Shown here in pieces: positions 1 to 23,971 of a stretch of 26,271 bases of DNA (its first letter is position 1; each line of letters opens with the position of its first letter). Below the pieces are notes generated by a model. It saw only the letters and a program-made list of their open reading frames with translations, had not been told where the DNA came from and did not search any database. The stretch comes from Folioceros fuciformis (Eukaryota): contig JBNGIO010006165.1 of NCBI GenBank assembly GCA_049999805.1, forward strand, positions 148,199 through 174,469. Direction: 5' to 3'. A program made the translations under genes and the position numbers.

Positions 1-3000
1 ACGGATGCGTGGTGCGGGCCTGCGATCCAGATGATGGTTGTCAGGGTGTGCGTCAGGCTCTGTAGCGAGTCCAGCTTGGGCCACCAGGCCGCGCCCTTGA
101 AGTCCCCGTGTCCGACTTCCACCACCTCCTTCCACCAGGCTTGCAACTCAGTGTCCGCCTTCACCGCAGCATCCGAGTCCTTGTACGCCAGCCCAACGTA
201 CTTGCCCACCCAGGACTCGATCACGTCCCAGAGTTCCAGCCCGTCTTTGGCGAAGGGATAGTCCTCGATCGCCAGCTTCACGCCCCCCGGATGAGTGGAG
301 TCTGCTGGTTCTGCCATACCCCTGCCCACAAAAAATTGCACAGCACACAGTGTTCAACCCACCAGCTTGAATGCAGTTGAAAGGCTGGAGGAAGGATGAC
401 GCACATCATCGTGTACTGGCCACGATGAATGGCGCCATATGTCAGCCTCGTTTACCTGGAAATGAGGTCGGTGGGTAGGGCTTGTCTGTCGAACCTCCAC
501 TTGGCTCCATACACCACAGCACTCATCTCCATGCAGTAAGTGCCAGGGGTGAACGTCCTCTCGATGATGCCGTTGGAGTTGATGAGAGCCTGCCTCGCAG
601 CGCCATTGATGTTCATGGTGTTCCTGAAGTGGGGCAGCAGAAGGATGTGGATGGGATGGATAGCACTCAGCTGCCGGTGGGTTGCTATGATGATGGGTTC
701 CATCACTGCGTGCGTCTCCAGCCTGCAGGGCATCAGTGGGGCGTGATGAAGGAAGAAAGGAACGACATGACGGGCATGTTTGTATGGAATGCATTGTTGC
801 ACTAATAGAATACCAGTGGCTGACGAGCTCGTGGTAGCCGAAGTCAACAGTACTGGCGTGGATCTTTGCTAGCTCCCACAAGTAGTCCTTGTCCTCTGCA
901 TCCGCTGCCGGGGCAGTAAATACTCTCGAGGACTTCTCCAGAGCCAGCTCAATGGCGATAGGCTTCAGGGTGCCCTGGCTGGTGAGGAACAGAATGGTCC
1001 GGGGAGCATATCCCAGGCCTCTGCCTTGTTTGTTCTGCTTACCGATGTATGGCAAGAAGATATCGTGGTAGTCTACCGTGAACAGCCTCTTACCTTCTAT
1101 GGCCTGCACGAATGGTTCAAGAGAAAAGTACCAATGGGATCAGATGAAGGGTTGGCCAACTGCCGGTCCAGGATTGTGTCCCATCTTGGTCTACTACCTG
1201 GGCGACAGACAATCCCTCCAAGTATGGGAGAATGTGCTCGTCTGTGAGGGCCGTGCCTGGACCATACACCTCGGGATCCAGAGAGCTCTTGGGCGGGTAT
1301 TCCTGCATACGAACGAGTGTGTGAGCAGCAATCCGTGCAAGGTCTGCTTCGCACATGAGCCACCAGAGGCAGAGGATATCTGGCAATCATGGAGGATGGC
1401 AAGTGCGTGAGCTTTTGGTACTAACTTGGACGCGCTGAATGACGATTGGGTTGATCCCAGCCAAGGCCTGACGTCCGAATTCCTCGTCGGTACACCATGC
1501 TTTTTCATCAACTGCGAAAACACAAGCACAGGAAGGAAGGTTGTAGTCCACTGCCAATGGCAAAGAAGGTGACGTAACTCCACGATAAACAGAACGAAGG
1601 AATACGTGGAGAGCAGCAGCAAACCTCTGATGACATCGGGAACAGGGTACTTGATCAGGCTCTTGTTGTCGCCATCGCCGTTAAAGAACTGTGCGATGAG
1701 CGTGAATGGATTGGTGAAAGCCGGAGCGTCCTGCGGCACATCTCCGAAGCATCCCTTGAGGTTGAGACCTTGGTCGTACAGCTTCTTGATGTCCTTGAAG
1801 GTGTCAAAGTCATCGGGGGTGGTATCGAAGTAGGTGGATATGGCAGGCAGGATGGCGTGCGCCGCGGCCTTCACGGCGTCCGCCAACACGCTGGACGTTT
1901 TTTCCCGGCTGAAGATCTCATCTCTCGGGATGTAGAACTGCTCCAGCAGCGGTGACCCCACGTTGCTCTCCAGTTGAGGGGCTTCACCACACAGCGTTGC
2001 ACATTTCAATCGCCAACAATTCAGCATCAACTCATGGAACAAAAATCAGAAGCTCGCATAGGTCTGATCTCTACCGGTTTTGGAGGGAGGACGGCCGGTC
2101 CTGATGCGGCGAGGATATGGCAGGGCGGAGCCTCCCAGAATAGGCCGGATCGTGGAGGAGTCGCTGTCGGGATTGGAGAGGTCGTTGTACACGTCATAGT
2201 CGTAGATTCTCTCCCACGGCTCCCTCTCTCCTTTGCCATCTCCACGCTTGACCTGGAGCTCCAGTTCTCTCAACGCCTTGATTCCTGCGGGGGTTTCGCT
2301 CGGGACATAGGCCTGGCGCACGCATCGTGGAGTCACTGCCGAGACACTATCATGAATGCATTGGAGACAAAAAAGTGGATGGTAGCGGGTGTCACCTTGT
2401 TGGTGAAGAAGACGCGGTCGGCTGAGTATCGCGAGGTGTTGTAGACGACGGAATTGCAGGGGAACGTGAGCTTGGTCTTGTCCGCCAGCTCCAGCACCAG
2501 CGACCTGAGGAAGAACTCGTTGGGGTGGCCGTTCCTCACCAGGAATGCTCCAGGCACACCGAAGTCGGTGGGGACCTTGAAGGTGACGGTGAAGGAATCC
2601 TCGTCCGTGGCCACCTCCAGGGCTTCGGGCGTGAGGTCTTCCAACCCCCAGTTCTCGATCTTGGCAGTGTCGCTGAGCTTGGGCTGCCCTGTCTCTGCGC
2701 ATGACACGGAGCCATTCTCAGACCAGCTCAGTCTCGAGGGTATTCAACCCCATTTTCGTTGGCACATGTTACAAGAACGTTATCTGTTTCCTCAGGATTC
2801 CATGAAGCTTGAGACTAGCAACCATGCCCTCACTCACTTGGGTCCAAGTCGACGCTGACGAGCCGAAGTTCCACCTTATTGCCCACCAAGTCGGCGGCCA
2901 AATCCACAGCCTCAGCCGCTTTGTTCTGCAAATCCAGCAGATTCTTCTTGATCAGCACTACGGTGCCCTTGAGCTCCACGGTGGAAGAGGTAGTTTTGGA

Positions 3001-3276
3001 GCCATTTCCAAAGATTTTGGACAGAATCCCGCCGATAGCCCGCACCGAGACTGGGCCCGGGCTCCCTGCAGCCTGCCGATCACTGCCCGGAGGGCTTGAC
3101 ATTCTGGCCACTTTCGGGAATCCCAGGAGCGCTGTGCCGCTCAGGTCGGAGCCTCTGTAGCCCAGGCTAGCACAAGCCGTCGATGCCTGCCGCACTTTGC
3201 TACAGGAATCGATGGGGTTCGCAGCGATGGCTGCCGGAGCGGGAATGGACACCACGATCCCCGAAATGCTTGCCAT
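1..3276 (-). CDS. LOX: Lipoxygenase, type-II plastid 13-LOX (3' end lies outside the window)
   Basis: Exons on the minus strand: 3276-2838, 2694-2396, 2312-2075, 1981-1625, 1511-1426, 1302-1198, 1103-814, 722-456, 321-<1, all with GT-AG introns. N-terminal S/A/R-rich transit peptide (MASISGIVV...), PLAT domain ([19 protein letters not shown]), [35 protein letters not shown], Fe-ligand region [16 protein letters not shown], and IIERTFTPG (TF = 13-LOX determinant). Confidence 0.96.
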
Positions 3277-6200
3277 TTCTGAGAAGATCTTCCGCAGTCT
3301 GCAACTAGGTAGTTGCGTGCAGAGTTTGGATACACACTTACGCACACCTCGTTGGCGCAAAAGACTGACAGACAGCCAACAACCAGGCTCGCCCAGCTGT
3401 AATGCCTGCGAAGGCACCATCCACATGGTATGAATCCCACACCACTAGCCTACCAGTGTCTCCATAATAACACCAACGGCAAAGGACGCAACTAGCACTC
3501 TCCATCCCACGCACGCTCCACAGTGCCAACACGCACTTAGTCTATAATTCGTCACACCAACAAACCAGGCACGACGTACCGCAGGTTCAACAACCCCGGG
3601 CTCCCCTCAATTCCTTCCTCCAGACGCTTCGAGCTCGGTCAGTACCCACCTCATCCAAGACTAGTCAGACGCTTGCAAATTCCTGGCCTCTCCCACCTGA
3701 CAAGGACGTAAGAGACAAAGTCTGCACCCTCAGCCTCCTTCGCGTTTGCGGAAGACACGAAAATTGCTCCTCTGCATGTGACGAAAAAAGAGGAAGAGCG
3801 GACGAGGTTGGTCAGATCTGACTCGGATGGAATCACTAGGAAACTCAAGGCAGCACGGGGCGCCGCAATTGCCAATTACCACGAGCTAAGGGCCGGCCCG
3901 ACTCTGTCAATCCGCCGACTTCGTGTTTGGACAGGCCTGATGGCGAAGACTCGGAACCTTGACGGTGTCTGTTTCGCGCATATATTTGCACGGTTTGATG
4001 GGGCAACAGAGCAACCAACCCAGGTGCGGAGGACTGCCGATCAGCTTGACTGCTTAGGGGCACTTTATGCATCACAGTGGAGCTCCATGTGTAAAAGGGG
4101 AGGGGAGGAGAAACATTATTTATCTTATTCAACGTCCAGAGAAATCTGCAAGAAGTATCCGCCAATCTCCACAGCACGTGGTTCGGACCCTTCCTGGCAC
4201 ACAGGGCTGCTAGGAAACATCCTAGACCTATCTCGGATTTCTCCATCACTCCTGCCAAACCTGTCCTCACATAAAGATTCCTTCATATCATAGAGGCAGA
4301 TGGTGGGCCAGCTGCGGCAACAGCAGTTCAAAGTCTCTCTCTCCCTGACGGTGCTTGGTTGACGGGGCATCCTCACAGTCACAAGTCGGCAACAGGCAGC
4401 AGGGAAGACGGAATCGGTACGGCCTTGGCCAGCGACTCGCCCAATCGCTCATAGTCCGATCCCAGCCTACCGTTGTTCCAGCATGTTCTCCTTCTCCCAA
4501 TCTCCCTTGTCTGAACTCTCACTGAAGATCTGTCACCTTATCTCCATCGATGGTGCGTGTGGTGATGTGGCAGTGAAATCTTTACTTTGAAACTTTTAAT
4601 TTTCACATGGGTTGGCTGGACGTTTTTCAGAATCCTGCTTTCCACCTTGAGGTTTGGCAATGCTTTCCCCTTGACATGCTTGATTGCAAGCTGCGACTCG
4701 TCTGCAACTACGCCTCCTACCACAGGGCAAGTGGAATCACTATTGTGGAACTTTTCAAGACGTCAGTGGCCAGCTCTCGACCCCTTTAAAGGTGCCTGGT
4801 TCATAAAACGTCAGCTTTACAGGTGGTGTGCTTGGGTGATGGTACTGGTGTGACATCCACCCACCACTGGGCCTGTCAACAAAGACGTTCCTGGAAGCAA
4901 GCCCGGATATGCTCGAGGTACTTCTTGCGCATGTTTCACATGCTGACGTAAACGAAAGCGTTTCATGGATGTCCTCGCAGCTCACTCCCAATACATCCAG
5001 AGTGTCGTGTTTGTGATGTATCGCGGAACTACGTTGCTCACAATTTCGCTGGGCGGCTGCCTGAAAGAGATATTCTTTTCTAGATGCAGAGAACTGGCCT
5101 TCCGGGATGTATCCTGTTGTGAGCGATGCAAGAGACAACGGTGAAAGTCAAGTGCAGAAGTGAGAATTGGGGTCGAAGCATGTCTTGTAATTCATAACCT
5201 CAGACCAAAAGGAGGCATCAGAAAATCGTTAAAGAAAACGTTGGCCCACATGAGCGTAGCCCAGGGAGCATGATCCTGTCGGCGGTGTACCCAATCTATG
5301 CCTTGGTCTCTTTACTTCCCACTGCTGACTAACGACATCGCTTTCAGTTTTTGCAGGTCTTAGATCCTGTTGCAAATCTGCGAATTGTTGTGGCGAGTAC
5401 TTCATGTGCAGTGTGGTTGCATCTTTGGCCACACTTTTGTCTTAAGCAGTCAAGGTGAGAGGCAGGCTTGAGTGGTCCCTATGACTCTGTTGGAGCATCG
5501 CAAAATGTCTTGAAAGCAGCTCATCAGCCTGCTCGCCGGCAGGCAGGAATGATCCTGGGGAGTTAACTGACCAGGCTCTGAGGTCCCCTCCTACAAGTGT
5601 CACCAGAAAGAAATTAGGAGCTGTCAATGTCTTTGCAAGAAACACAGCAGAGGATGGTCGACTGTGAAGAGCACTGAATTGGCGGTGTCCTAACTCAGGA
5701 ACAAGCACCGTCAGTGTCTGTCTAAATGGTGGCTTAGGCCGAACGGACACATTTATACCAGTGAACTTTTTTTTCTTCATCTTCTTCGACTACACCGAAT
5801 TGTGTAGCTGGAGTACCCACAGAGATCAGCTTCATGACCTAGTTTGCATCACTTTTGCATAGAGATGACCCATCCCGTGAATTCTCCAAAGGAAGGCCAA
5901 AGGTGCTCACACTTGCGCATGCTGCAGAACGCACACAAGGGCGGCCACGACTTCGTCATACACCGGACTGTGAGGACTACGAGTTTCTCGCCCTGCCCCT
6001 TCTACGCATACGCTGCAGGCACGGCGTTTCAAGTCAGTCAAAACATCTTTCTGACCGGGTCTGTCACTTCCAGCTGCCATCCAGCTGCCAGAGTGGCGCC
6101 AAGTGTTCACCAAGGACAAGCTCATGACGTTTAACGGCAGTGGACAACACATCAGCGTTCATCTGTTGCCCAAGTTTCAAGTTATCCCATCGCACAAGCG

Positions 6201-6895
6201 TCCAGGCAAAAATACATGGCCATCCAGCTTCCCACACGGTATGCGCATCCTACGATACAATCCCCTAGGGTTTAGGCTGCAGTCCGGGTCCATCCTCAGA
6301 AATTTGTGGCAGACACTGTGAAAGGTTGAACCCTTTGCCCATTTATTGCCGCGGAGAGTCCATTTTCTGAAAAGGGAGAAAGGCCCTGCTCAGTCTCGGA
6401 AAAACCGAGGACATTTTGGTTGGGTTTTTATCTTGGCCGTTTCCTGGTGGCATGGAACGATGTGTCCCAAACCACGTCGACTGGTTCGTCAGACGTCGAG
6501 GAATGAGAACTCCTGGTGACGATTTATCCCCTGGGGTGTCTTGATGTATTTTCAAACTACTGAATTGGTCAAGAAAGAGCTGATTTGTGATCCAAGACGT
6601 AGCCTGTGCTTGCATCCTTTCGTCTGCAACTTACCAGGGGTATGGGTCGAACACGAATGAGTTCAAGAGGTGTGCTTCTCGTGCCAGGCTACCACATGAA
6701 CGTTCTCGATATAGTTGCCAAACCAGGTGCCTTGACATGGTCTGTCATAGTTTCTGAGCGTGTTATGCCAAGTACTGGCAAGTACAAAACAGGCCTCTGC
6801 ATGTACGGATTTCGTCAACAAGATGCATTGGATTAGATCGGCGAAGGAGGGAAAGGGATGGGGTATGGATTGACGTCGTGGAAAAAGGCAAGCAG

Positions 6896-9340
6896 TCAGT
6901 GTCGATCGCCACAAGAGCAGGAGCCACCAAGGAACCGATGCACTCTATGAGCATCTCGCACTATGATCGCTCGGTTCTCAAGACGGGACATGATCTTGGT
7001 GCTACTGTGGCAGTCATTGCACATACGGAGATTTTTGGTCACCAACAGAGTTGCGCCTTCTCCTGTGTGGAGCAGACCATATGCCAACGCCAGTTTCTCT
7101 GCGTGTCCACATAGGGAGTCCTCTTTGTCCTGCTCAGAGACTGACTTCAGCACCAATTCAGTCTGCGGCACGTGGCCTCCTTCCCTCAATCTAAGATTCA
7201 CACCCTTTAGTGTCGACGAAATATCAGCTCTGTCTTCTCCTACTCTAAACTCGTGCACCTGACTCTCCACTTCAATGCACGCCCTGGCAGCCTTCTTCTT
7301 AGCTCCTGCTGACTTTCTCAAGCTTTCAACTCTGTCCACATCCTCCCACCTGTCTGCACTCGCATAGATATTGCTCAAGAGCACATAGGAGCTTGCATCG
7401 TCTGCTTCCAAAGCTACAAGATGCTCAAAACATCGTCTTCCACACTCCAAGTCACTGAAGCTTCTGCAAGCAGTCAGCAAGGCTGTCCAACCAACGACAT
7501 CGTCTGTAACTGGCGCAGTTAGTAACATGCTTTCGGCCTCGTTCAGATAGCCTGACCGACCGAGGAGGTCAACAATGCAGTTATAGTGATCATGAGTTGG
7601 AATGATTTCATGCTCCTCTACCATCAGCCTGAAATAGTGCTGGCCTTCGAGAACCAAGCCATCATGGCTGCATGCCACCAACAGCGAAACAAACGTAGTT
7701 CCATCTGGCTGGATACCTTGATCCAGCATCACTTCGAAAAGCTGTATTGCCATCCGACCAAGGCCATGTTCAGCATACCCATTAAGCATGGCATTCCATG
7801 TCACCACATCTCTGGTGGGCAATTCATCAAACACCCTGCGAGAATCTTCCAAGCACCCACATTTCGCATACATGTCAACTAGGCAGTTGCCAACCAGCAC
7901 ATTCGCTTCTAGGCCTTGTTCACGAATTTGCTGGTGAAGTTCTTTGCCCTGCTGCAAGGCTCCCACACTGGCGCACGCTTGAAGCAGGCACACAAACGTG
8001 ACACGATTGGCCGGAGTCAAGCCATTGTGCTGCATACTTGCATGAAGAGCCAGGGCCTCTCGCCCCAGCCCCTCTTGGCTGTATCCTGCAATCATGGCAG
8101 TCCATGTCACCACGTCTTTTGTGGGCAGGCTGTCGAACACCTTTCGAGCATCCTCCAAGCTTTGGCATTTGGCGTACATGTTCACCAGGCTGGTGCCAAT
8201 TACAGCATCAGCTTCCAGACCTTCCTTCCGAATGTCCGAGTGAAGCTGCTTCCCCTGTTGAATGTCTCCCACACTGGCGCACGCTTGAAGTAGTGACACA
8301 TATGTGACATTATCTGCTGGCGTCAAGCCCTCCTGCTGCATACTTGCATAGAGAGCCAGAGCTTCTTGCCCGAGCCCCTGCTGACTGTATCCTGCTATCA
8401 TAGCATTCCATGTCACCACATTTCTTACAGGCAAGGTGTCAAACACTTGGCGAGCTTCCTCCAAGCTCCCGCATTTGGCATACATGCTCACCAGGCTGGA
8501 GGCCACAAAATGATTAGCCCTCACGGAGCTGGCCCTGATATCCGCATGCACCTGCTTCCCAGCAACCAGGTCCTCGGCAGCAGCACACGCCTTCAGAACT
8601 GCCACGTAGATGTGGTTGTCCGGCCTCACACCTGCCTCTATCATCCGCCGATAAAGATCAATAGCTTGCGCAGGCTGCCGATGTCGAGCATGAGCCAAAA
8701 TAATTGAGGCCCACATGTACACGTCCGGGGTAGCCACCCTGGTGAAGACCTGCCCGGCCTCCTCCAACTTGCCCTGAGCAGCATACATACAGATGAAATG
8801 GTTGGCCAAGAAAGCGTCTGACTCGTACCCCGCTCTGACAGCAAGAGCATGAACTCGCCTGGCAAGCACCAAATCCTGGTGCTGGACACACTTTTTGATC
8901 ACGAGGTAGAACACGAAGTTGGAAGCAGGGCATCCCGGCTGCTGCACCAGGAGCTCCAACGCTTCCACAGCCTCCGTCAACCCTCCCTCCTCGCAACGGG
9001 TCCTCAACCATCCAACCAGCTGCGAATCCACGCAACCCGGATGGTGTGGGATTCGGAGCCACAGCGGCTCCTTGGAAGCCTTGTGCCTGAAGTCAGGATG
9101 ATGGGGGCTCCTCTTGTCCCGCCTATCGTCCCACCACTGAGTAGGGTCGGAGAGGAATTGGTGCCACAAGACATCCTGCCGCTGCACCTTCTCCTTGAGG
9201 GCCATCAATTCCTGAGCGGTACAGCTCCCCGCAGCTCCAGCTCCAAATGGGCCCGCCGGCACCACATGAGCTGCAGGCTGCAGCTTCCCCAACCCCTGCT
9301 GCACTGGCATCACCAGCGGCAAATCCAACGGCCTGGCCAT
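6896..9340 (-). CDS. PLS-class PPR-E1-E2-DYW (DRH / DYW:KP-like) organellar RNA editing factor with N-terminal OSB-like PDF motif
   Basis: 814-aa intronless ORF with 14 clear P/L/S motifs (e.g. VVTWNAMIAGY, SLVSMYAKCG), E1/E2, and a deaminase-fold domain with HAEKLA...CNDCH ending in DRH. aa 58-108 contain LWHQFLSDPTQWWDDRRDKRSPHHPDFRHKASKEPLWL. The true start codon is uncertain. Confidence 0.95.
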   Translation of the reverse strand: MARPLDLPLVMPVQQGLGKLQPAAHVVPAGPFGAGAAGSCTAQELMALKEKVQRQDVLWHQFLSDPTQWWDDRRDKRSPHHPDFRHKASKEPLWLRIPHHPGCVDSQLVGWLRTRCEEGGLTEAVEALELLVQQPGCPASNFVFYLVIKKCVQHQDLVLARRVHALAVRAGYESDAFLANHFICMYAAQGKLEEAGQVFTRVATPDVYMWASIILAHARHRQPAQAIDLYRRMIEAGVRPDNHIYVAVLKACAAAEDLVAGKQVHADIRASSVRANHFVASSLVSMYAKCGSLEEARQVFDTLPVRNVVTWNAMIAGYSQQGLGQEALALYASMQQEGLTPADNVTYVSLLQACASVGDIQQGKQLHSDIRKEGLEADAVIGTSLVNMYAKCQSLEDARKVFDSLPTKDVVTWTAMIAGYSQEGLGREALALHASMQHNGLTPANRVTFVCLLQACASVGALQQGKELHQQIREQGLEANVLVGNCLVDMYAKCGCLEDSRRVFDELPTRDVVTWNAMLNGYAEHGLGRMAIQLFEVMLDQGIQPDGTTFVSLLVACSHDGLVLEGQHYFRLMVEEHEIIPTHDHYNCIVDLLGRSGYLNEAESMLLTAPVTDDVVGWTALLTACRSFSDLECGRRCFEHLVALEADDASSYVLLSNIYASADRWEDVDRVESLRKSAGAKKKAARACIEVESQVHEFRVGEDRADISSTLKGVNLRLREGGHVPQTELVLKSVSEQDKEDSLCGHAEKLALAYGLLHTGEGATLLVTKNLRMCNDCHSSTKIMSRLENRAIIVRDAHRVHRFLGGSCSCGDRH

Positions 9341-9843
9341 AGTCTCCTACCTGCTCCACCTCAGGCACCATGCCCGCTAACACTGTTACATTCTGTGCCC
9401 TCCCGAGGTATCTGCGAGGGACCCGTGCCCCGCTCCACAACCGGGCTCGAACAGGAGGCTCTTGTACAAGCTTTACTCTCAAACACGGGAAATTACAGTA
9501 TATAGTGGAGGTTTTTACAGACTGAGACCACTAGCCATTCCTAAAGTCCGCTTGTTCTTCATGCACAGCCCACCCAGGGCATCGACACGAAAAGGATAAA
9601 CAACATGGTGGACCATCGGAAGGTTCTCAAAATGAACTAATGCAAGATGGGGAGACTGTATGTCACGAGTGTGTACCCAGAAAGGATGGGACGGTCCCTC
9701 AACACCTGAGCAGTCTGGAAGAAGATCCACATTCACTACCGAATTACCAGAGTTCCGCTATGGTTCCGCTCTCACTATATCGGTCAATCCAAGAGGTGTG
9801 GCACTACACCTCCTCGGATACGAAGTCTGATCTAATGGGGGCA

Positions 9844-9900
9844 ATTTGAAAAGAAGACAAGACACTTGACAACACATTTGAAAAGAAGACAAGACACTTG
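9844..9900. repeat. Direct repeat (25-bp identical unit, 32-bp period) abutting an assembly gap
   Basis: ATTTGAAAAGAAGACAAGACACTTG at 9844-9868 and 9876-9900, immediately followed by Ns. Confidence 0.9.
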
Positions 9901-9910
9901 NNNNNNNNNN
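9901..9910. other. Assembly gap (10 N)
   Basis: Run of n at 9901-9910. Confidence 1.
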
Positions 9911-10132
9911 TGTGAAAAACCTTGAAAAGTTCTTGCCCATCCCCCTTGCCCCTCTTGCAGGGAAGAATATTTATGGACTGTAGCTGTTGCACAACCCTCT
10001 GCCACCCAACTAGAGGGGTTGATGATGTGCTCATAGATTGAATTGAATAGGATCTGTAACAATCACATCAACGACACAAACTTGTTCCCCTAATGAGAAA
10101 AAGGTCAACTCTAAGTGAAACCCCATTGAGAA

Positions 10133-10391
10133 CATGGGTGACAATGCGGTGCCTCCAACAGGAGAACGGGACCCTCTATCGACCATAGAGGACAACAGGA
10201 CCCTCTATCGACCATGGAGGACAACGGGACCCTCTATCGATCATGGCAACCCCGAATTGTATCATGGGCGACAATGTAGTGTCCCCAACAGGACAATGGG
10301 ACCCTCTATCCACAGTGGCAACCCACAATTGCAACAGGACCGGCAACCCACAATTGCAACAGGACCCTCTATCCACACTGGCAACCCACAA
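10133..10391. repeat. Degenerate minisatellite, core GGACCCTCTATC
   Basis: Core at 10169, 10198, 10227 (29-bp period), 10299 and 10362. Higher-order copy 10133-10180 vs 10263-10310. GGCAACCCACAATTGCAACAGGACC occurs twice. Confidence 0.85.
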
Positions 10392-11048
10392 CCGCATGTA
10401 TACGGAGAAAAGGCCAAGGGGGTGGGCCAAACCTAAGAGAAATCTATGACAGTGACGAAAGTTGTTGGTGCCATTTGAAATGGCTAGATGAAAGGCCAAA
10501 CTCTCCAAATGAGCCAGACAATTCATCCACGGGCACACTCGAAGATGCCAAGATCTATGATGTCCAAAAGCTTGCATAATCCTAAACCCGAGTTTAGGAA
10601 CCAAGAACTTATTGTTAAGGAGACTTTACTTATGGCTTGAAATAAGTGAATATGCTTTAGGATGGGGAAAGAAAGAACGGGGGAGCAAAAGTAGAAAAAG
10701 GGAGTGTACGGACAAAGGGAAAACGAATCCTACAAGTACCCCAGCCCAGGCCAATTTGCAATCCCTCGGTCTTGTCGTCCGGGCCTGCGACAAAACCCCA
10801 CAGCCCACAACCCCCCCACATAAGAAGTAAACAACGTGGGTCTATCTCTTCAGATGGGTCTATCTGAAGCGATAGACCCATCGCTGCTGCTAGCCATCTT
10901 CCGGTGTAGCTTCCTGGACCTCTGCCCGACACTTGGAACTTGTTGGATGAAAACGTCTCTCTTCTTGTTGCTTATATGAGCTGTGCAGGCGCTCTCTTGC
11001 GACGGGAGCGGGGAAGTTTGGGAAGACGGCAGCTCTAGTAAGGCAACG

Positions 11049-12086
11049 ATGGCCGGGGCCTTGATCAGAGGCGCTTCTGTCGCGCTACGCGAGCCGGTGC
11101 ACCTGCAGCGGACGCGCCATGCCAGCGAGAGCACAAACAGTAGCTCCTTCAGCGTGAGAGCGTCGGGCGCGTCCGGCAAGAGGTTGCGTAGGCCGGAAAA
11201 TGTGGAAGGTGAATTCTTCGTGGACAACAGTTGCATCGACTGTGATACGTGCCGGTGGATGGCGCCGGCCACCTTCTCCGCCAGGGCAGGCCAGTCGGCG
11301 GTGCACCAGCAGCCGGCCACGGAGCAGGAGCGGTTCAAGGCGCTGCAGGCGCTGCTGTCGTGTCCAACGGGCTCCATCCGCACCGAGACGCCGCCTCCCG
11401 ACATCCTCCAAGCGCAGCTCACCTTCCCCATACCTGTGGCGGCGGATGGCCAGACCTTACCAGGCGTCTACCACTGCGGCTACCACTCTCCCAAGTCTTT
11501 TGCCGCCACCTCGTACTTCGTGGTCCGGGACGGGGGAAACATTCTGGTGGACTCCCCGCGCTTCACCGAGAAGCTGGCCGCACGGCTAGAGAGCTTGGGG
11601 GGAGTGCGCTACCTCTTCCTCTCACACGTGGACGACATTGCCGACCACCAGCGCTGGCAGGAGCGATTCCAGTGCCAAAGAATTATGCACGAGACGGAGA
11701 TCCATCGTGACGCTGGGTTGGCTGGCGTGGAGATCCCGCTCCGAGGCGTCGGGCCCTGGCCCCTGGGCCCGGACGCTGAGGTTGTGTTCAATCCCGGGCA
11801 TTCCTCTGGGTCCGTCTCGCTGTTCTTGAAGGACCAGATGGCTCTGTTTACAGGGGACCACCTCGGTTCAGGGGAGGATGGTGAGTTCCATGTGAATCGG
11901 GAGTTCAATTGGTACTCTGTGAAGGTTCAAATCGAAAGCCTCCAGAACGCCACATTGCCCCTGGATTTTGTGTGGTTGCTTCCAGGCCATGGGAGGAGGT
12001 ATAAATTCGACAGCCTTGAACATAAGAATCGAGTGCTTGAGGACATGATCGCACGTGAGGAGGCCTTACTCGCTAACAAGTCGTGA
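11049..12086 (+). CDS. Ferredoxin (4Fe-4S-like) + metallo-beta-lactamase-fold hydrolase, probably plastid-targeted
   Basis: Intronless ORF from ATG 11049 (MAGALIRG...). S/R-rich leader ending ...SVRAS, then RRPENVEGEFFVDNSCIDCDTCRWMAP...CPTGSI (Fe-S motif), LVDSP, LSHVDDIADH, PGHSSGS, FTGDH, LPGHG (MBL fold). Confidence 0.9.
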   Translation: MAGALIRGASVALREPVHLQRTRHASESTNSSSFSVRASGASGKRLRRPENVEGEFFVDNSCIDCDTCRWMAPATFSARAGQSAVHQQPATEQERFKALQALLSCPTGSIRTETPPPDILQAQLTFPIPVAADGQTLPGVYHCGYHSPKSFAATSYFVVRDGGNILVDSPRFTEKLAARLESLGGVRYLFLSHVDDIADHQRWQERFQCQRIMHETEIHRDAGLAGVEIPLRGVGPWPLGPDAEVVFNPGHSSGSVSLFLKDQMALFTGDHLGSGEDGEFHVNREFNWYSVKVQIESLQNATLPLDFVWLLPGHGRRYKFDSLEHKNRVLEDMIAREEALLANKS

Positions 12087-12695: not shown

Positions 12696-15361
12696 TCATA
12701 GCTGCTTGGATTCCTCCATGTCCAGTAAGGCTTTGTCTGCCTTCTCAACTGCTGCTGCGAGATCGCTCTCGGAAGGGAGCAGTCCGAGGAAAGGTAGTGG
12801 AAAGAGCGAGGACACATTGCAGATGACGAGGAGCAGAAGGAGATGATCGAAATTCGTGCTGGTGACGCCCAGCACCTCCGTCAGCAAGGCGCCCATTAAT
12901 CCGCCCGTGACGCCGGCCCCATTGCTGATGGACATGAGCGTTGCGAACAGAGTGGCTTCCACACCTGGGGGACAAAGCCTGGCTGCCAGAACTAGGATAG
13001 GCATGAAGGATACCTGGAAGGCCGGTAGAAACGACAGGTTATTTCTAGAACGATGTAAACGGACCTAGTGCACCCAAAACATGGTACTCCATGTAGGGTG
13101 GGGCTAACTCACCTGTCCCAAAACGGTGAGGATCAACGAGTCGCCCATGGCAAACCACTGGTCACTGATGCCCAAAGCGCGATTAACCCCTGTCACTAGT
13201 AGGAGCTGAATGGACGGGACGACGAGGGAAGAAAGAATCAGCTTTCACAGGCACAGTCGGCGTACTAGCTGACTTGAAATCAGGTCTGCAAGGGCTATAC
13301 CTGAGTGAGACCCAGAACCGCTCCCACAATTGTTGTCCAGAAGAACATCTTCTGAAGAGATACGTGCTTCAGCCAACCGTTATAGACGCCCACTCCTACC
13401 AGTGACGCAACTGATGTAACCAACCTTACGCGTCCAAGGAATTCAGGCCCAAAACCCAGCTTGTTGGTACTGTGCAATCAGACAAAGAAGCCACGAATCA
13501 AAAGCTGCTGCTGAGATATCGAGCAAGCGTAGAAATTCAAGCGACACAAGCCTCTCGGGGTCATGATGCCCACGTGAAATAGAACATGGCGGTATCTGAA
13601 GTAGGTGTGGCTTGCCACAAAAAGATGAATAAAGTTGGCAAAAAAATATTCGGCTCCTTTGCAGTTCGCCATAAGTGGCCCATCTGCACCCTCGCTAGAT
13701 CCACAACTCCTGAAGCCCATTTGGATCCAGCATTACCCATTGTTCCCGACGCATATACAGATTGTTCTTGAACTAGTCCTGCAACGGCAGAGGTGATGAG
13801 GGGCAACAGAGCCGTTACCCCAAACACAAACCTGCAAGTACATACGTTTGGTTCAGTTAGAATAGGCAAAAGGTTCTGTTGTGTGTACTTCTAACCTCTC
13901 GAGTACACACATCCCAAGTCTCACCTCACGCCGTATGATTCTACGAGGTAGCCACTGAAATAAGCGCTAACTATTCCTCCCGTTGCTGAAGACCCCCAGC
14001 AGAGAGACTGCAGCGAGCCAGCAGTCCCTTGAGACTCGCCACGAGCTCGCTCGACAACCATGGAATCGACAACCTTCACCAACATGCATATGGTGAGCGC
14101 AAAGAAACAGAGTTCCAAAAAATTGAAGGCCAGCATGAACTTTACAACTGCTACAGATCCTGCGCCAACTACTTAGCACTAACAATGGTAGGCTTTGAAG
14201 AAAAGCAATGAAGGAGATCATGCACTTACAACATCAGAGAAAGCCACAGACAAGGAGCTGAGGAATATTGCAACTAGAGCTGTGTACTTGCTGTCCACCA
14301 AAAATGCAAGGGCACCCCATGCTACAGCTCCTAGGAAGCCACAAAGCACAAGATAAGACCTTCTTCGGTACCCGAAAAGAGGAAGTCCATCACTGTGACA
14401 AGCATCATCCAGACGACGACATTCAGTAAATCATGTCACCATAACTTGCTCATGGGTGGGGCACAATCAGGTGTAGGGGCCCACTCTCCTTACCTAATAA
14501 AACCGTAGATGGGCTTCACGAGCCACGGGAACGCAGAAACACCCGACAGCAGGGCAGTCTGCGGCAAGCAACATGGAGCATAAGCTTACATAACTTCCAA
14601 ATCCGAGTGCACAACGACAGTCGAGTGAACGGAGCAGGCACCTCTGCAGGGCTCAAATGGAGATCGTCCTTGAGGAAAAAGCTGACAGCAAGCCGAGAAA
14701 GCCCCAAAATCCCTTGCACAAAATACACCATGGAGATGGCAACAATGTCAGGGGACAATTCCACGCCGAAAAGGGTGAGCTTCCTCTTGGGTGGCTTTCT
14801 CTCCGGCCCTAGCAAGTCGACAGCTTCACTTCCATCCAAGTCTTCCGCTCGGAAGCTCGGACTCTCTACATCGCCCTCGTTGTGGAGAGCCTGCTGGCCT
14901 CGCAACGTCTGCGAATCTGGATAGGGAGGGAGAAATTGCGGACGAATGTGTTACCACTCAACGAGCTAGGCGTGAGCTTACGACAACACTTCAGGCATAC
15001 AAGCACTACCTTTATTTGCAGCGTAGGATGGGCTGCTCTGCCTCATCAGGCGGCCGTCAGCGGCAAAATCCCAGGAAGAATCCTCCCGCCGACTCATTGC
15101 TCGTGGGAACCTAGCTGCAGCTGCCTTCTCTTTCCTGATGCTGATAGCGCAGGAGCGGTGGCAGCGGGACACCGTTGCTGCAAACCATTTGCTCCCAGCA
15201 CGTACCGTTCTAAACCCAAGCCCTGAGGTAGAGAGATGCCTTAAGCCGGGATTGCACGACCCACACAGTTCCGCTCCACCAGCCCCGCGTCCGGTTCGGC
15301 CACCGGTCGGTCGCCCTTCCTTGTAGATAACCTTTGTACACAGCGTTCTACTTGATAACAT
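12696..15361 (-). CDS. Folate-biopterin transporter (BT1 family, MFS), chloroplastic FBT1-like
   Basis: Exons 15361-15010, 14916-14642, 14558-14494, 14392-14230, 14073-13925, 13831-13574, 13469-13301, 13205-13113, 13013-12696. Motifs [80 protein letters not shown]. Alternative in-frame ATG at 15472. Confidence 0.93.
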
Positions 15362-15964: not shown

Positions 15965-18590
<2,626 letters not shown>

Positions 18591-19155
18591 GCCGAGCACA
18601 CCCATCAGGACAACGTCAGCACAATCTCAAACAACCGGTCCGTCACCAGATGGTCAGACCCGCACAGGACGAGCCGGAAAGAATCGGAGACTGCCAACAC
18701 CGCGCTCCCGTAAGCGTATGAAGAGAAGATGAACAAAGCTAAGGGCGGGTGCCTCAAATACCATATCAGATCACTGCATATATAGAAAATGTGTTCTCAG
18801 TCTAGGTAAATCGGTCCGGGTGACTTGGGAAACAAGATGCCACGAAAGCAGGAACAGAACACGTCACAGCGTCAAGGCGGACCAATGAAATACCGAGTTG
18901 GCGTGCCAAGGTGGCATCCACCAATAGGCAGGCTCGGCCACGGAGTGCCACGCTGGCGTGGCCCTGTCCGAGCCAATACCGTCGCCCGAGAGTGCTGGCC
19001 GTCGCGCATGCTGTTTACCGGCGTCAGCCGGTAGCCACGAAACCTGCTGCTTCCCATTTCCAGCTCTAAATGCAACAACAGAAAGCGGGGTGGATCGTGG
19101 CGGGGGCCAAGATTGGGAGCGTATTGCGCTGGATCTGTTCGCGGGCACTACAACC
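18591..19155. promoter_or_regulatory. Shared divergent promoter/5'UTR region of BiP and GRP94 with UPR-type cis-elements
   Basis: TATATA at 18779-18784. CCAAT at 18882, 18921, 18973. GCCACG at 18839, 18937, 18947, 19034 and its inverse CGTGGC at 18957. TGACGTGT on the minus strand at 18859-18866, and GCGTCA at 18869 and 19021. Confidence 0.7.
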
Positions 19156-22100
19156 ATGAGGCGATCGGGGGCAGCCTGGCTGCTCTGCCTGCTTGTTGCC
19201 TTCGCGGTGTTGAATCATGACTGTAAGTCCCGTGTTCAGGCCTCTCCGGGCGGTCCTCAGCTTTGAGGCATTGTGTGGGCTTGTTAGAGTGGTTGACGCT
19301 CCTTCGGGCTTCTGGGGGGGCTTTGCATGCAGGCTTGTTGATTAATCTTTCAGGGTTGTGCACGGGGTATGATTGTTTTGCTGGTTGTGAGCGTCGGGAG
19401 CACGGACGGACCAGTCTTGGATCTTGCGTGTGGCATTTCCGTCGTGCATGCATGCGGGGTTGGGAAGAGGGGTATGGGGCAGGGGGTGGGGAGCGCATAT
19501 GTCGGCCCTCGGTGATGTGTTCTGGCGGGCATTGTGGAGGATCTCTCATGGCGGTGCATTACAGGCTTGGATTGAGCTGGCATCGTCGAGCGGCAGGCGT
19601 GCATAGACCAGTTGCTGTTTGGTGTGGTGGTTGTGAGTGGCTTGACTTTGTGTGATGGGTGGCACTCTATGCTTCGTGGCTGGGTTGTGGCGTAGTGCGG
19701 ATCACGTGGTTGCGAGATTTGGGTTTATGTTCTCTCCGGACAGTGAGTTGAGTCCGGTTTTGGGCACTCCGCAGGTTGGCATTCGCAGGTGAAAGCAGAG
19801 GAGAGTGTTGATGCCGATTTGCGAGACGCACCCAAGATCGAGGAGAACTTCGGCGCCGTCCCACCCGGGCTGTCCACCGATTCCGAAGTCGTGAAAAGGT
19901 GTGATTTAGGCGCCTGGCTTTTTAATGTGGATGCCTTGTGGGGGCAAGGGGAGGGGTGCCCTTTGTTTTCCCTTCTCGGTGTGAACGCTTTCTGACGATA
20001 TGTTGGCGGACTTTTCATCCAGGGAAGCAGAGTCGATCAGAACATTGAGGACTCATGGAGAGAAGTTTGAGTTTCAGGCTGAAGTGTCCAGGCTTATGGA
20101 AATCATTATCCACTCGCTATACAGTAACAAGGATATCTTTCTGCGAGAACTCATTTCGAACGCCTCCGACGTGAGTTCTCCAGGGGTGCACGTGTTGCAG
20201 TGATCTGTTTGTGGCTTTGGAATCGGCCGAAGCGAGCTTGAACCTTGCTGGTTTCAATTTGGCAGGCGCTGGACAAGATCAGATTCCTTTCACTCACTGA
20301 CAAGTCCGCTCTCGGGGAGGGTGAGGACAGCAAGTTGGAGATTGAGGTACACTGTTCCTCTCCCTTAGCTCATGTTGTCAGCGTGGATTACTCAGGAGGA
20401 GTAATCCTGAGATGCACTGTGAGGTTCTGACATCTGTCCTGGGAACAGATCAAGGTGGACAAGGATCGTAAACTCTTGTCCATCCGGGACAGGGGGGTTG
20501 GCATGACGAAGGAGGACTTGGTCAAGAACCTTGGCACAATTGCCAGGTCGGGCACATCAGGTACTTATGGATGTTCTGACGCAAGGTGCCGCTAATTGTC
20601 TAAATTTTGTCCTTTGTTTCTTAGCACTGAGGAACTTCCTCGTATTAATTTTGACCTTTTTTTGTCAATTTGTTTGCAGCATTCCTTGAGCAGATGCAAA
20701 AAGGCGGTGATTTGAACCTGATCGGGCAGTTTGGAGTTGGATTTTATTCTGTATACCTTGTTGCTGATTATGTCGAAGTGATCAGCAAGCACAATGATGA
20801 CAAGCAGTGAGTAATAGCTGTCAGAGTCACTGGTGTAGCAGAGGAAAAGTTCTTCATGGCGAAGCTGAGTTTGGTGGAGTTGTTTGAGGACTATCTTACT
20901 TGCTAGTGCAAGTCACTGATTACAGTGTGCCCCTATGCCCGTGGCAGGCACATCTGGGAATCTAAAGCTGATGGAGCGTTTGTGGTCCTGGAGGACACTG
21001 AAAATGAGCCGCTCGGTCGGGGAACCGAGATCAGAATACACCTGAAGGATGATTCCAGCGAGTACGCTCAAGAGGACAAACTTCGAGTATGTTCTACGCT
21101 TACTCTTGTTTTGCTGTTGTTGCATTTGGACTTGGGGTGTAGGCAGCCATTTTCTCCCTCTGTAGAATGTGTTTCTTATATGCCATTGATTGCAGGAGCT
21201 GGTCAAGAAATACTCAGAGTTCATTAACTTCCCCATCCGCCTCTGGGCAAGCAAAGACATTGACGTGGAGGTGCCGGCAGATGAGGAGTCTGAAGAAGTG
21301 TCAGAGGACGAAGAGCTGAAAGAGAGTAAGCTTTGATTTCTGAGGATGACTTTCTTGCCACTAGGAGCACAGTAGCAGCCAACTGCGGCAGTCTCAAGCA
21401 ATCATGCACGGAGTGTCGGACATCGTTCTGACCTGGATTCTGTGCTAATCTCGTTGCTGCAGCTGAGGAGACGGTTGAAGACGTGGAAGAAGATGGAGCC
21501 AGCGATAAGAGTGAGCGATCCTTTTTTTTCCTGCTGTCTTTGACTTGCTAGCCCGACCACGTGTTACCTTAACTTGTTTGAAACGGGTTTATTCAGAGCC
21601 CAAAACAAAGACTGTCAAGGAAACAAAGTGGGATTGGGAGGTTCTGAACGATGTGAAAGCTGTATGGCTGCGTAACCCGAAGGAAGTGTCTGAGGAGGAG
21701 TACTCCAAGTTCTATCATACTTTGGCCAAGGTAGTCCACTTCGCCGAACGGTTTAGTTCTACCCTTGGTGATGTATTGTTTCCAGCTTGCTAAACGTTCC
21801 TTAATTCTCTTCCAGTGTCGCTTTGCGGTACTTGTTTTCCTGGCTGAGGACTTCGTTTGTCGAGTATTAGATGCAAAAGTTGATCAGTGGCATTTGGTGC
21901 TCAGGACTTCGGTGAGGACAAGCCTCTCGCATGGTCACATTTCAACGCTGAAGGTGACGTAGAATTCAAGGCAATCCTGTACATTCCCCCCAAAGCGCCC
22001 TATGATCTTTTTGAGAACTACTACAACACAAAGGCAACAATCAAGCTCTTCGTCCGGAGAGTTTTCATCACAGATGAATTTGATGAGCTGCTCCCCAAAT

Positions 22101-23971
22101 ACTTGAGTTTCCTCAAGGTACATGAAGTGACGGGGGCCTCGTTGATGTCTGTCGGTAAACGCTTTTGTGCTTCGGAAAGCTGGCCTAGAAGCTGACTGGG
22201 ACGCTTGCTTTGTTGTTTGCAGGGAATAGTCGACTCGGACACTTTGCCCCTGAATGTCTCACGGGAAATGTTGCAAGAACACAGCGCTCTCAAGACCATC
22301 AAAAAGAAGCTTGTCCGTAAAGCCTTGGACATGATCCGCCGAATCTATGAGGAGGATCCTGATGAAGTCCACGACGGCAAAACATCTGGTATGTCTTGGT
22401 GTGGATTCAATGGAACCAACATTGAACCAAGCCCTAGATGTCCATGAAGATCAGAAGCGAAAGTGTGGATTGTGGAAGGTCGGGATTCTTGTCCATCAGC
22501 TTTGAATTGCTGTGCTCTGAGTCTTCTCTGAATTGGTCAGATGAGGAAACGGCCGTGGAGAACTCTGAGAAGAAAGGGAAATACGTGAAGTTTTGGAATG
22601 AGTTTGGGAAAGCTATCAAGCTTGGAGTGATTGAAGATGCAGCCAATCGTGCTAGGTTGTCTAAACTACTGAGATTTCACAGGTACATTGATCGTCAATC
22701 AGCTTGTCTTAATGTCTGCATGTTGGGAAGCAATGCATGCGAATGTTGCCTACCATTTTCCATGTGTCCATTTGCAGTTCCAAATCAGGTGATAAACTGA
22801 CATCACTCGATGAGTACATTTCCCGAATGAAGGAGGGACAAAAGCAGATATATTACATCACTGGTCAAAGTAAAGAAGAATTGGAGAACTCTCCGTTCTT
22901 GGAGAAGCTGCTCGCTAAGGGTTATGAGGTAAGAGTTTGTCCTGGTGGCAGAGACGTGGACGTGTGTGTGCATGTGGGTGGCAAAGTCTATCCCCGCTCT
23001 TGAAGTCTAGTCCTGCGTGTTGACAAAGGCTGCGGTTGGTGCCACAGGTGATCTACTTCGTGGACCCCATCGACGAGTACTTGATGCAGAACTTGTCTGA
23101 GTACGAAGAGAAAAAGTTCCAGAACGTTTCCAAGGATGACCTGAAGATCGCCAGCAAGGCGGAAAAGGCAAGGAACAAGAAGTTGAAGGAATCGTTCAAG
23201 GATCTGACGAAGTGGTGGAAAGAGGCCGTTCCCGGAAGCAGACTAGAGTCGGTGAAGGTGAGCAGTCGCCTTTCCGGCACTCCCGCCGTCGTGGTCACCT
23301 CCAAATTTGGATGGAGCGCAAACATGGAGCGCATCATGCAAGCCCAGACTCTCTCTGATCCCAGCAAGCAAGGCTACATGCGGGGGAAGAGGATACTGGA
23401 AATTAACCCTAGGCACCCTATTATCAAGGACCTGAGGGAGAGGGTGGCCAGCAACCCTGAGGTAAGCGTCGGCTAGCCTGTTCGGTCTTCGTCTGTGCGG
23501 GCATGAAAGTGATTGGAACAGCAGTTGCTGTAGCCTACTCACAATGCGATTGATGGATTTGCTCCAGGACGAGAGTGCGAAAGCCGTGGCAACCTTGATC
23601 TATGAGACGGCTCTGCTCCAGAGCGGCTTCATCCCAGACGACTCGAAGGACTTCGCAACTCGCATCTACTCTGTGATCAAGGCTAACTTGAACTTGAGCC
23701 CGGACGCGGACGTGGAGCCTGAGGAGGAGGTTACCGAGGAAGAGGAGATCTCGGCAGAAGCGAAGGATACCGACAAGGAGGTACACGTAACATACTAGAA
23801 ACGTACATGGTTGACCAGTGCCGAATTTCCTGCATACTCACTGGTAACATTCTCTCCATTCTGGGACAGGGAGGAGATCACGACCAGGAGGCGCATCCTG
23901 ACGAGGAATTTGAGAGCTTTAATGCTCAGAATTTTGAAGATTCGAGCTTCGACTTGAAAGACGAGTTGTAA
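19156..23971 (+). CDS. GRP94: Endoplasmin / GRP94 (ER HSP90, SHEPHERD/HSP90.7 homolog)
   Basis: 17 exons: 19156-19222, 19775-19898, 20023-20170, 20266-20346, 20449-20560, 20680-20806, 20948-21086, 21196-21325, 21463-21510, 21597-21730, 21905-22117, 22223-22388, 22541-22682, 22778-22928, 23048-23461, 23568-23780, 23870-23971. Signal peptide [60 protein letters not shown]-terminus KDEL. Confidence 0.98.

Follow-up and report, generated by a model that had tools for sequence, protein, structure and literature searches.

The window analysed here, a stretch of 26,271 nucleotides of Folioceros fuciformis DNA, carries on its minus strand (9340-6896) an intact, transcribed gene for a PPR protein of the PLS-E1-E2-DYW type, in which an OSB-type PDF motif stands at the N-terminal side of the PPR array. 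The enzyme class of this protein and the DRH subclass of DYW:KP deaminases, in which it falls, are already published, and its DYW variant is an ordinary one. What is new is that the PDF motif, a feature absent from the preliminary description of this DNA, is carried by most of the examined members of two large KP subclasses, DRH and GRP. Taken as a whole, the protein is best explained as an imported DRH editor that converts U to C in cis and has the PDF motif as an accessory, a reading that we hold with moderate confidence. Encoded in the nucleus as an RNA-editing factor for organelles and belonging to the hornwort DRH subclass, it would, we infer, be imported into an organelle, where its 14 PPR motifs would bind one site and its zinc-dependent domain would most likely turn the target U into C. 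K769 would attack the uridine C4 and the adduct would be resolved to cytidine, following the published reaction model of lysine attack at this position and later hydrolysis (PMC11332814). The PDF motif would then be an accessory module that folds, is under selection, and can be dispensed with. Its most likely contribution would be affinity, irrespective of sequence, for single strands either of the RNA upstream of the site or of nucleoid DNA.

Gene layout, transcription, and predicted target

The minus-strand frame 9346-6896 is open between stops for 816 codons and, from the ATG at 9340 to the TGA at 6898-6896, encodes a protein of 814 aa in a single exon. The N-terminal extension (residues 1-52; 9185..9340), in which the paralogues diverge, is weakly conserved and is probably an organelle transit peptide. 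It is followed by the PDF motif (residues 53-111; 9008..9184), recognized from a profile match and from its predicted fold and written as W..F..DP..WWD.R..K....PDF.HK....LW, and by two helices that precede the PPR array (residues 112-140; 8921..9007). These helices are degenerate and repeat-like, are seen in the AlphaFold2 model (helices 55-70 and 73-85 of the model), and are conserved by the paralogues. The array itself (7499..8920; Pfam PPR, E 5.9e-64) comprises 14 PPR motifs, their limits set by hand, in the order L1-S1-(P1-L1-S1)x3-P2-L2-S2. The E1 and E2 motifs come next (residues 615-682; 7295..7498; Pfam E_motif, E 1.7e-16), and the protein ends with a DYW:KP domain of the DRH subclass, 132 aa long (residues 683-814; 6899..7294; Pfam DYW_deaminase, E 8.1e-34). 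P-L-S triplets, P2-L2-S2, E1, E2, and a C-terminal HxE...CxxC domain thus all occur, as in PLS-class PPR-DYW proteins.

Contigs from run X1, which is not on record as RNA and which skips introns of neighbouring genes at CT..AC ends, match the gene with 0 differences at 5082-7013, 6995-7875, and 8392-9576. The third contig runs without interruption through the ATG, the PDF motif, and the first repeats, and the same unspliced RNA contig extends into a 5' untranslated region (9341..9576; 0 differences, 0 gaps). None of the X1 pieces listed spans 7876-8391, and there is no X1 cover at 9873-10489. Run and assembly may share their source material. In three other organisms, spliced runs include pieces that are about 93% identical in the region of the deaminase end, and two of these runs also cover the whole PDF region. 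At the gene's opposite end, an X1 contig continues without differences for 1.8 kb past the stop (5082-6895), explained by either a long 3' untranslated region or a transcript that overlaps the gene.

The other genes of the window include a lipoxygenase (1-3600, minus strand), a single-exon ferredoxin and metallo-beta-lactamase-fold gene (10980-12086, plus strand), and a BT1 folate/biopterin transporter (12696-15000, minus strand), none of which has an apparent link to the PPR gene. A head-to-head pair occupies 15965-23800, with a few hundred bases between an Hsp70 gene on the minus strand, whose product ends in HEEL and is BiP-like, and an Hsp90 gene on the plus strand that is presumably GRP94-like. 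Short imperfect repeats are found upstream of the PPR gene at 10140-10420, and an N run lies nearby at 9902-9909.

The code pairs of the 14 motifs are YD, ND, AD, VN, SN, ND, VD, TD, TN, VN, ND, ND, VT, and ND. Application of the PPR code to this array gives what we take to be the target, roughly 5'-nU?nAUnGAnUUnU-nnn-[target]-3', with the motif part at -17 to -4 and the target at 0. The register of the target relative to the PPR array was taken from PMC9478123. Plastid psaA/B had no match in the 87-Mb genome assembly. The only cox1 match in the assembly (L111:1465-1674, G000:C1915) is a short fragment inside nuclear-type DNA, probably a mitochondrial insertion.

Deaminase class and family size

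From the sequence of its C-terminal end, the protein had been described as a DYW:KP candidate with a replaced PG box, a shortened gating region without HP, an altered zinc motif, and a DRH end, and each of these features was found in the 814-aa protein. KAARACIEV stands in place of the PG box, the gating region reads VHEFRVGEDRADIS and has a 4-residue gap at the xHP position relative to the PG-type structures 9kfx and 7o4e, HAEKLA and CNDCH are both seen in the translation, and DRH forms the last residues. DYW:KP domains are defined by an altered box, a missing xHP, HAE, and a variable end (PMC9478123); HAE, Lys88, and M92 are given as traits of the class (PMC9478123, PMC11845758), and DRH and GRP are its two hornwort variants (PMC9478123, describing Gerke 2020 and Gutmann 2020). 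With the DRH subclass and the designer protein KP1, the Folioceros protein shares the KP-type box, though the literal P is absent, the lack of xHP, HAE, Lys88, M92, and the DRH end, and with the hornwort subclass also a domain of 132-133 aa, a PLS-E1-E2 array, and membership of a large family. It differs from the published subclass in having KA for KP and one residue fewer, both of which are common among its paralogues. It also differs in that it is natural and full-length and in that a PDF motif stands at its N-terminal side, which the available sections of PMC9478123 do not mention for DRH proteins. The DYW:PG editors, among them OTP86 (7o4e), DYW1 (7w86), and a synthetic protein (9kfx), belong to the same fold family and share HxE...CxxC and the conserved active-site lysine; the Folioceros domain, by contrast, has no PG box and no HP, has HAE for HSE and DRH for DYW, and falls in a separate clade. 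DYW:WW domains have a WW-type box, and the box of this protein contains no W.

The KA that stands for the namesake KP, singled out in the preliminary description, is present, but it was rejected as a special feature, given that position 2 of the box is A in 14 of the 40 closest DRH paralogues (P in 25, R in 1), with K at position 1 in all 40. Within the same set, HAE is found in 40/40, a terminal H in 31/40, and the domain length of 132 aa in 6/40. HAE alone is not diagnostic of KP, because another deaminase domain of this genome (L095, G000:C6303), which has HAE and a DQW end and keeps HP, falls in the PG clade.

Phylogeny, which had been proposed as a check, places the protein with KP: a tree that keeps it with PG was rejected (p-AU 0.0098), and the KP and PG clades split with a support of 100/99 in a tree of 37 rows (13 PG and 24 KP rows from an earlier 98, leaving aside P0256, a KP protein, as well as WW references, fern and lycophyte KP proteins, and published reference KP proteins). 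In the quick tree of 98 rows, it lies among the DRH rows (SH-aLRT 91, unstarred), and the GRP rows form their own group (95). Box, missing xHP, HAE, and tree position therefore all agree on membership of DYW:KP, and the subclass is DRH.

The family is large. When used as a query, the domain has at least 150 matching places in the 87-Mb genome, at 62-83% identity (150/150 scored, of 575 candidates). A GRP query gives about 150 places in the same genome, at 78-88% identity among those scored, and a PG query finds six full-length PG-type matches and one short gene (150 scored of 670 candidates). Overall, full-length KP genes number in the hundreds in this genome, and those of PG type about 7. In the protein collection, 33 of 35 matches were KP-type relatives, nearly all of them proteins without a name. 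The suggestion that the DNA comes from a hornwort-type genome gains from the joint presence of DRH and GRP variants and from the many KP and few PG genes. In Anthoceros agrestis, too, many full-length KP proteins accompany a handful of PG proteins (PMC12548569), and because the pattern found here matches this one, the hornwort origin is well supported.

Direction of editing

All catalytic residues are intact, with the KP-typical M. The zinc ligands are H746, C774, and C777, the catalytic glutamate is E748, and K769 corresponds to the active-site Lys88 of KP6; zinc ligands and glutamate are invariant in 40/40 DRH paralogues. Two lysines are essential in KP6 (K693 and K713; PMC11713852), and both are kept, as K749 and K769, with the same spacing of 20 residues. 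Lys88 does not decide the direction of the reaction, since PG domains conserve it as well (PMC11845758). The residues known from KP6 mutagenesis were also considered as indicators of direction and were rejected, as the protein has both sets: by alignment and in KP6 numbering, C6, A116, and V119, which favour U-to-C, and G64, V113, and H133, which favour C-to-U, G64 and V113 being common to GRP proteins.

Designer KP proteins had been invoked as performing U-to-C conversion. This holds for the GRP-type KP2 and KP3 and for the fern-type KP6, but not for the DRH consensus KP1, the only DRH-based design, for which 0% U-to-C was reported in 6/6 U-target replicates (PMC9478123). The Folioceros protein has the same catalytic core as KP2, KP3, and KP6, with both essential lysines, but it belongs to another subclass, keeps an Asp-Lys pair, and ends in H; U-to-C activity is a prediction in its case. 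For natural KP proteins, the activity is given as unknown (PMC11845758). The case for U-to-C comes from the distribution of KP proteins, which are confined to lineages with U-to-C editing (PMC9478123) and whose numbers in A. agrestis track those of U-to-C sites (PMC12548569), and from KP arrays reported to match U-to-C sites (PMC10226603, PMC12548569). On these grounds, conversion of the target U to C by this protein is likely, if well short of certain.

The protein might instead be a C-to-U or two-way editor, the DRH proteins providing part of the C-to-U editing where PG-type proteins are few and the GRP proteins performing the reverse reaction. KP6 does edit in both directions, and small changes move its balance (PMC9478123, PMC11845758), but KP1 had no C-to-U activity either (PMC9478123). 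The DRH subclass keeps a PG-like Asp-Lys pair (K100 and D130 in 40/40) that is lost in GRP, and its terminal H favours C-to-U in KP6; on the other hand, G64 and V113 are also found in GRP proteins, and designer proteins of that type edited only U-to-C. The scarcity of PG-type domains, only about 7 among the scored matches, would leave room for such a role, although a few PG domains can serve C-to-U editing in trans (PMC12548569), and according to reviews KP arrays match U-to-C sites and KP numbers follow those of U-to-C sites. Taken together, these points make a C-to-U or two-way editor unlikely.

It is very unlikely that the protein binds RNA but is insufficient on its own, whether because it needs a plant cofactor, a partner domain, or its native N-terminus, or because it is a non-editing RNA binder: KP1 was inactive in bacteria and human cells (PMC9478123), and active KP proteins in heterologous hosts stay crosslinked to RNA, so that the resolving step is missing there (PMC11332814), but 4/7 consensus designs failed (PMC9478123), which leaves one failure of KP1 saying little, and the DYW domain is under strong constraint (dN/dS 0.07 among 26 DRH genes), with its zinc ligands and glutamate invariant as given above.

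The N-terminal PDF motif

Residues 53-111 have at least 150 matching places in the genome, mostly in long frames (150/150 scored, of 412 candidates). A profile of 30 PDF copies matched 425 proteins and 1066 cluster representatives. Among the 120 matches listed, many are named OSB2/3/4 (E 1e-57 to 1e-19), and 41 have PPR-like repeats by pattern match, mostly from the lycophyte Diphasiastrum complanatum and one from the fern Adiantum nelumboides. The reverse search gave the same relationship, with a named OSB2-like protein retrieving these PPR frames with E values as low as 4e-22. An OSB-only profile, made from 49 repeats of 20 named OSB proteins with repeat limits taken with the 30-copy profile, scores the Folioceros protein at 53.5 bits (E 8.5e-19), against 5.4 bits for the best of 1000 shuffles. 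In AlphaFold2 predictions, the motif consists of a small sheet between two helices (pLDDT 81-90 per ten-residue block in context, mean 76 alone), and its W, P, D, and F positions are invariant. Neither the first 147 aa of the protein nor the 30 PDF copies are covered by a Pfam model (two chance hits, E 0.04-0.11). Searches with the motif found no match among solved structures by sequence (best E 0.2), with Foldseek (best E 4.1), or with VIA-align (best Z 3.7 of 48,161 chains), and no usable match in the ESM Atlas. This absence of structure matches does not show a new fold.

In OSB proteins, the PDF motif binds ssDNA, and PDF alone does so in OSB1; OSB2 and OSB3 are described as oligomers (PMC6963530, PMC6451138). 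The literature on OSB proteins, in its available sections, yielded no report of RNA binding by the motif. The Folioceros protein has in common with the organellar ssDNA-binding proteins OSB1-OSB4 a single PDF motif, about 55 aa long, whose homology is seen in forward and reverse searches alike. It differs from them in the position of the motif, which precedes a PPR array here and is C-terminal in OSB proteins, and in having no OB-fold: no SSB family match was obtained for an SSB-like domain before the motif, which only 52 residues precede. The PDF-PLS-E/DYW proteins of D. complanatum and A. nelumboides, which are unnamed entries in the databases, have, like the Folioceros protein, their PDF motif or motifs ahead of the PLS array, in one to three copies, and the 9 with a full deaminase are all of PG type (HSE, DYW end). 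The motif was considered as a marker of reverse editors and rejected as such, since these 9/9 listed Diphasiastrum proteins, and P0234 too, are PG-type.

To describe its distribution within the genome, 40 DRH and 40 GRP genes were picked by deaminase similarity alone, of which 2 DRH and 4 GRP genes were cut by contig ends. The motif is present in frame in 27/38 DRH and 34/36 GRP paralogues and is missing or eroded in the other 11 and 2. Several of these 13 genes keep remnants, and the motif has therefore been lost repeatedly, including from the closest paralogue of the gene described here. When about 3 kb upstream of each gene was scanned, the motif was found in none of five full-length PG genes (the sixth is cut); of 13 KP genes that are more divergent, 12 lack it. 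The thirteenth, an early-branching KP gene (L106/L128, G000:C5748), has a PDF motif that is interrupted by an intron, whose position in the motif is shared with a gene without PPR repeats (L097:168-1577, minus strand, G000:C2033). In the large DRH and GRP groups, unlike these two genes, the motif lies in one exon, which would fit copying of an intron-bearing ancestor by retroposition. The gene L097 combines a probable transit-peptide exon, the intron-split motif, and an acidic linker with a truncated PG-type deaminase domain that has HSE and a DYW end but no PG box or gating region, and its predicted product looks like a trans-acting donor of the DYW1 kind that bears a PDF motif.

Selection on the motif was estimated by pooled pairwise comparison of genes with one intact copy, giving a dN/dS of 0.20 for 26 DRH and 0.165 for 29 GRP genes, figures to be read with synonymous sites near saturation in DRH and with a choice of intact-motif genes that favours a low value. 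The corresponding figures are 0.17 (DRH) and 0.22 (GRP) for the P2-E2 region, 0.07 and 0.12 for the deaminase, and 0.45 and 0.60 for the 30 residues before the motif. Read most simply, the PDF motif would be an accessory that is under selection and can be dispensed with and that increases the protein's affinity for single-stranded nucleic acid. Designer proteins of the GRP type lack it and still edit (PMC9478123).

It is somewhat unlikely that the motif is a passenger from an ancestral gene, copied along and decaying, or that it is retained only because it caps the structure or belongs to the import signal. Its erosion or absence in 11/38 DRH and 2/36 GRP genes, with remnants in several, would be expected of a passenger, as would its absence from 12/13 divergent KP and 5/5 full-length PG genes. 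Purifying selection on it, however, equals that on the C-terminal PPR motifs, the W, P, D, and F positions do not vary, and the motif is kept in transcripts of related species and in PPR proteins of lycophytes and ferns, often in two or three copies. A protein-contact module that joins PPR specificity factors with trans-acting deaminase donors would account for PDF motifs on E-type PLS proteins without a deaminase domain and on the PPR-less L097 and would suit the oligomers of OSB2 and OSB3, but it is improbable, as the characterized activity of PDF is ssDNA binding and the Folioceros protein has a deaminase domain of its own.

An accessory that binds single strands could be part of a wider scheme. 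Massively editing seedless plants may have built editors with an OSB-derived PDF module that tethers hundreds of them, in hornworts reverse editors above all, to nucleoid ssDNA or nascent RNA and thereby couples editing to transcription; the missing native part would then explain why there is no report of natural and DRH KP proteins working outside the plant. We regard this scheme as doubtful. No published description of a PDF-PPR fusion was found, in a search that did not extend to Gerke 2020, Gutmann 2020, Zaegel 2006, and Knoop 2023. The available sections of a 2026 survey of OSB genes, which kept only OB-fold proteins, make no mention of PPR (PMC13393729), and those of a 2026 survey of editing factors make no mention of OSB (PMC13386178). 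The PDF accessory module of KP proteins is thus apparently undescribed.

Since this DRH gene is intact and expressed, its array short and readable, and relatives exist in other species, it lends itself well to testing what the DRH subclass does. The PDF module is conserved in most of the examined DRH and GRP genes, yet it is missing from all designer constructs. Should the motif prove to bind single strands of RNA or DNA, organelle editing would be connected with nucleoid proteins through it, and tools for U-to-C editing might be improved.
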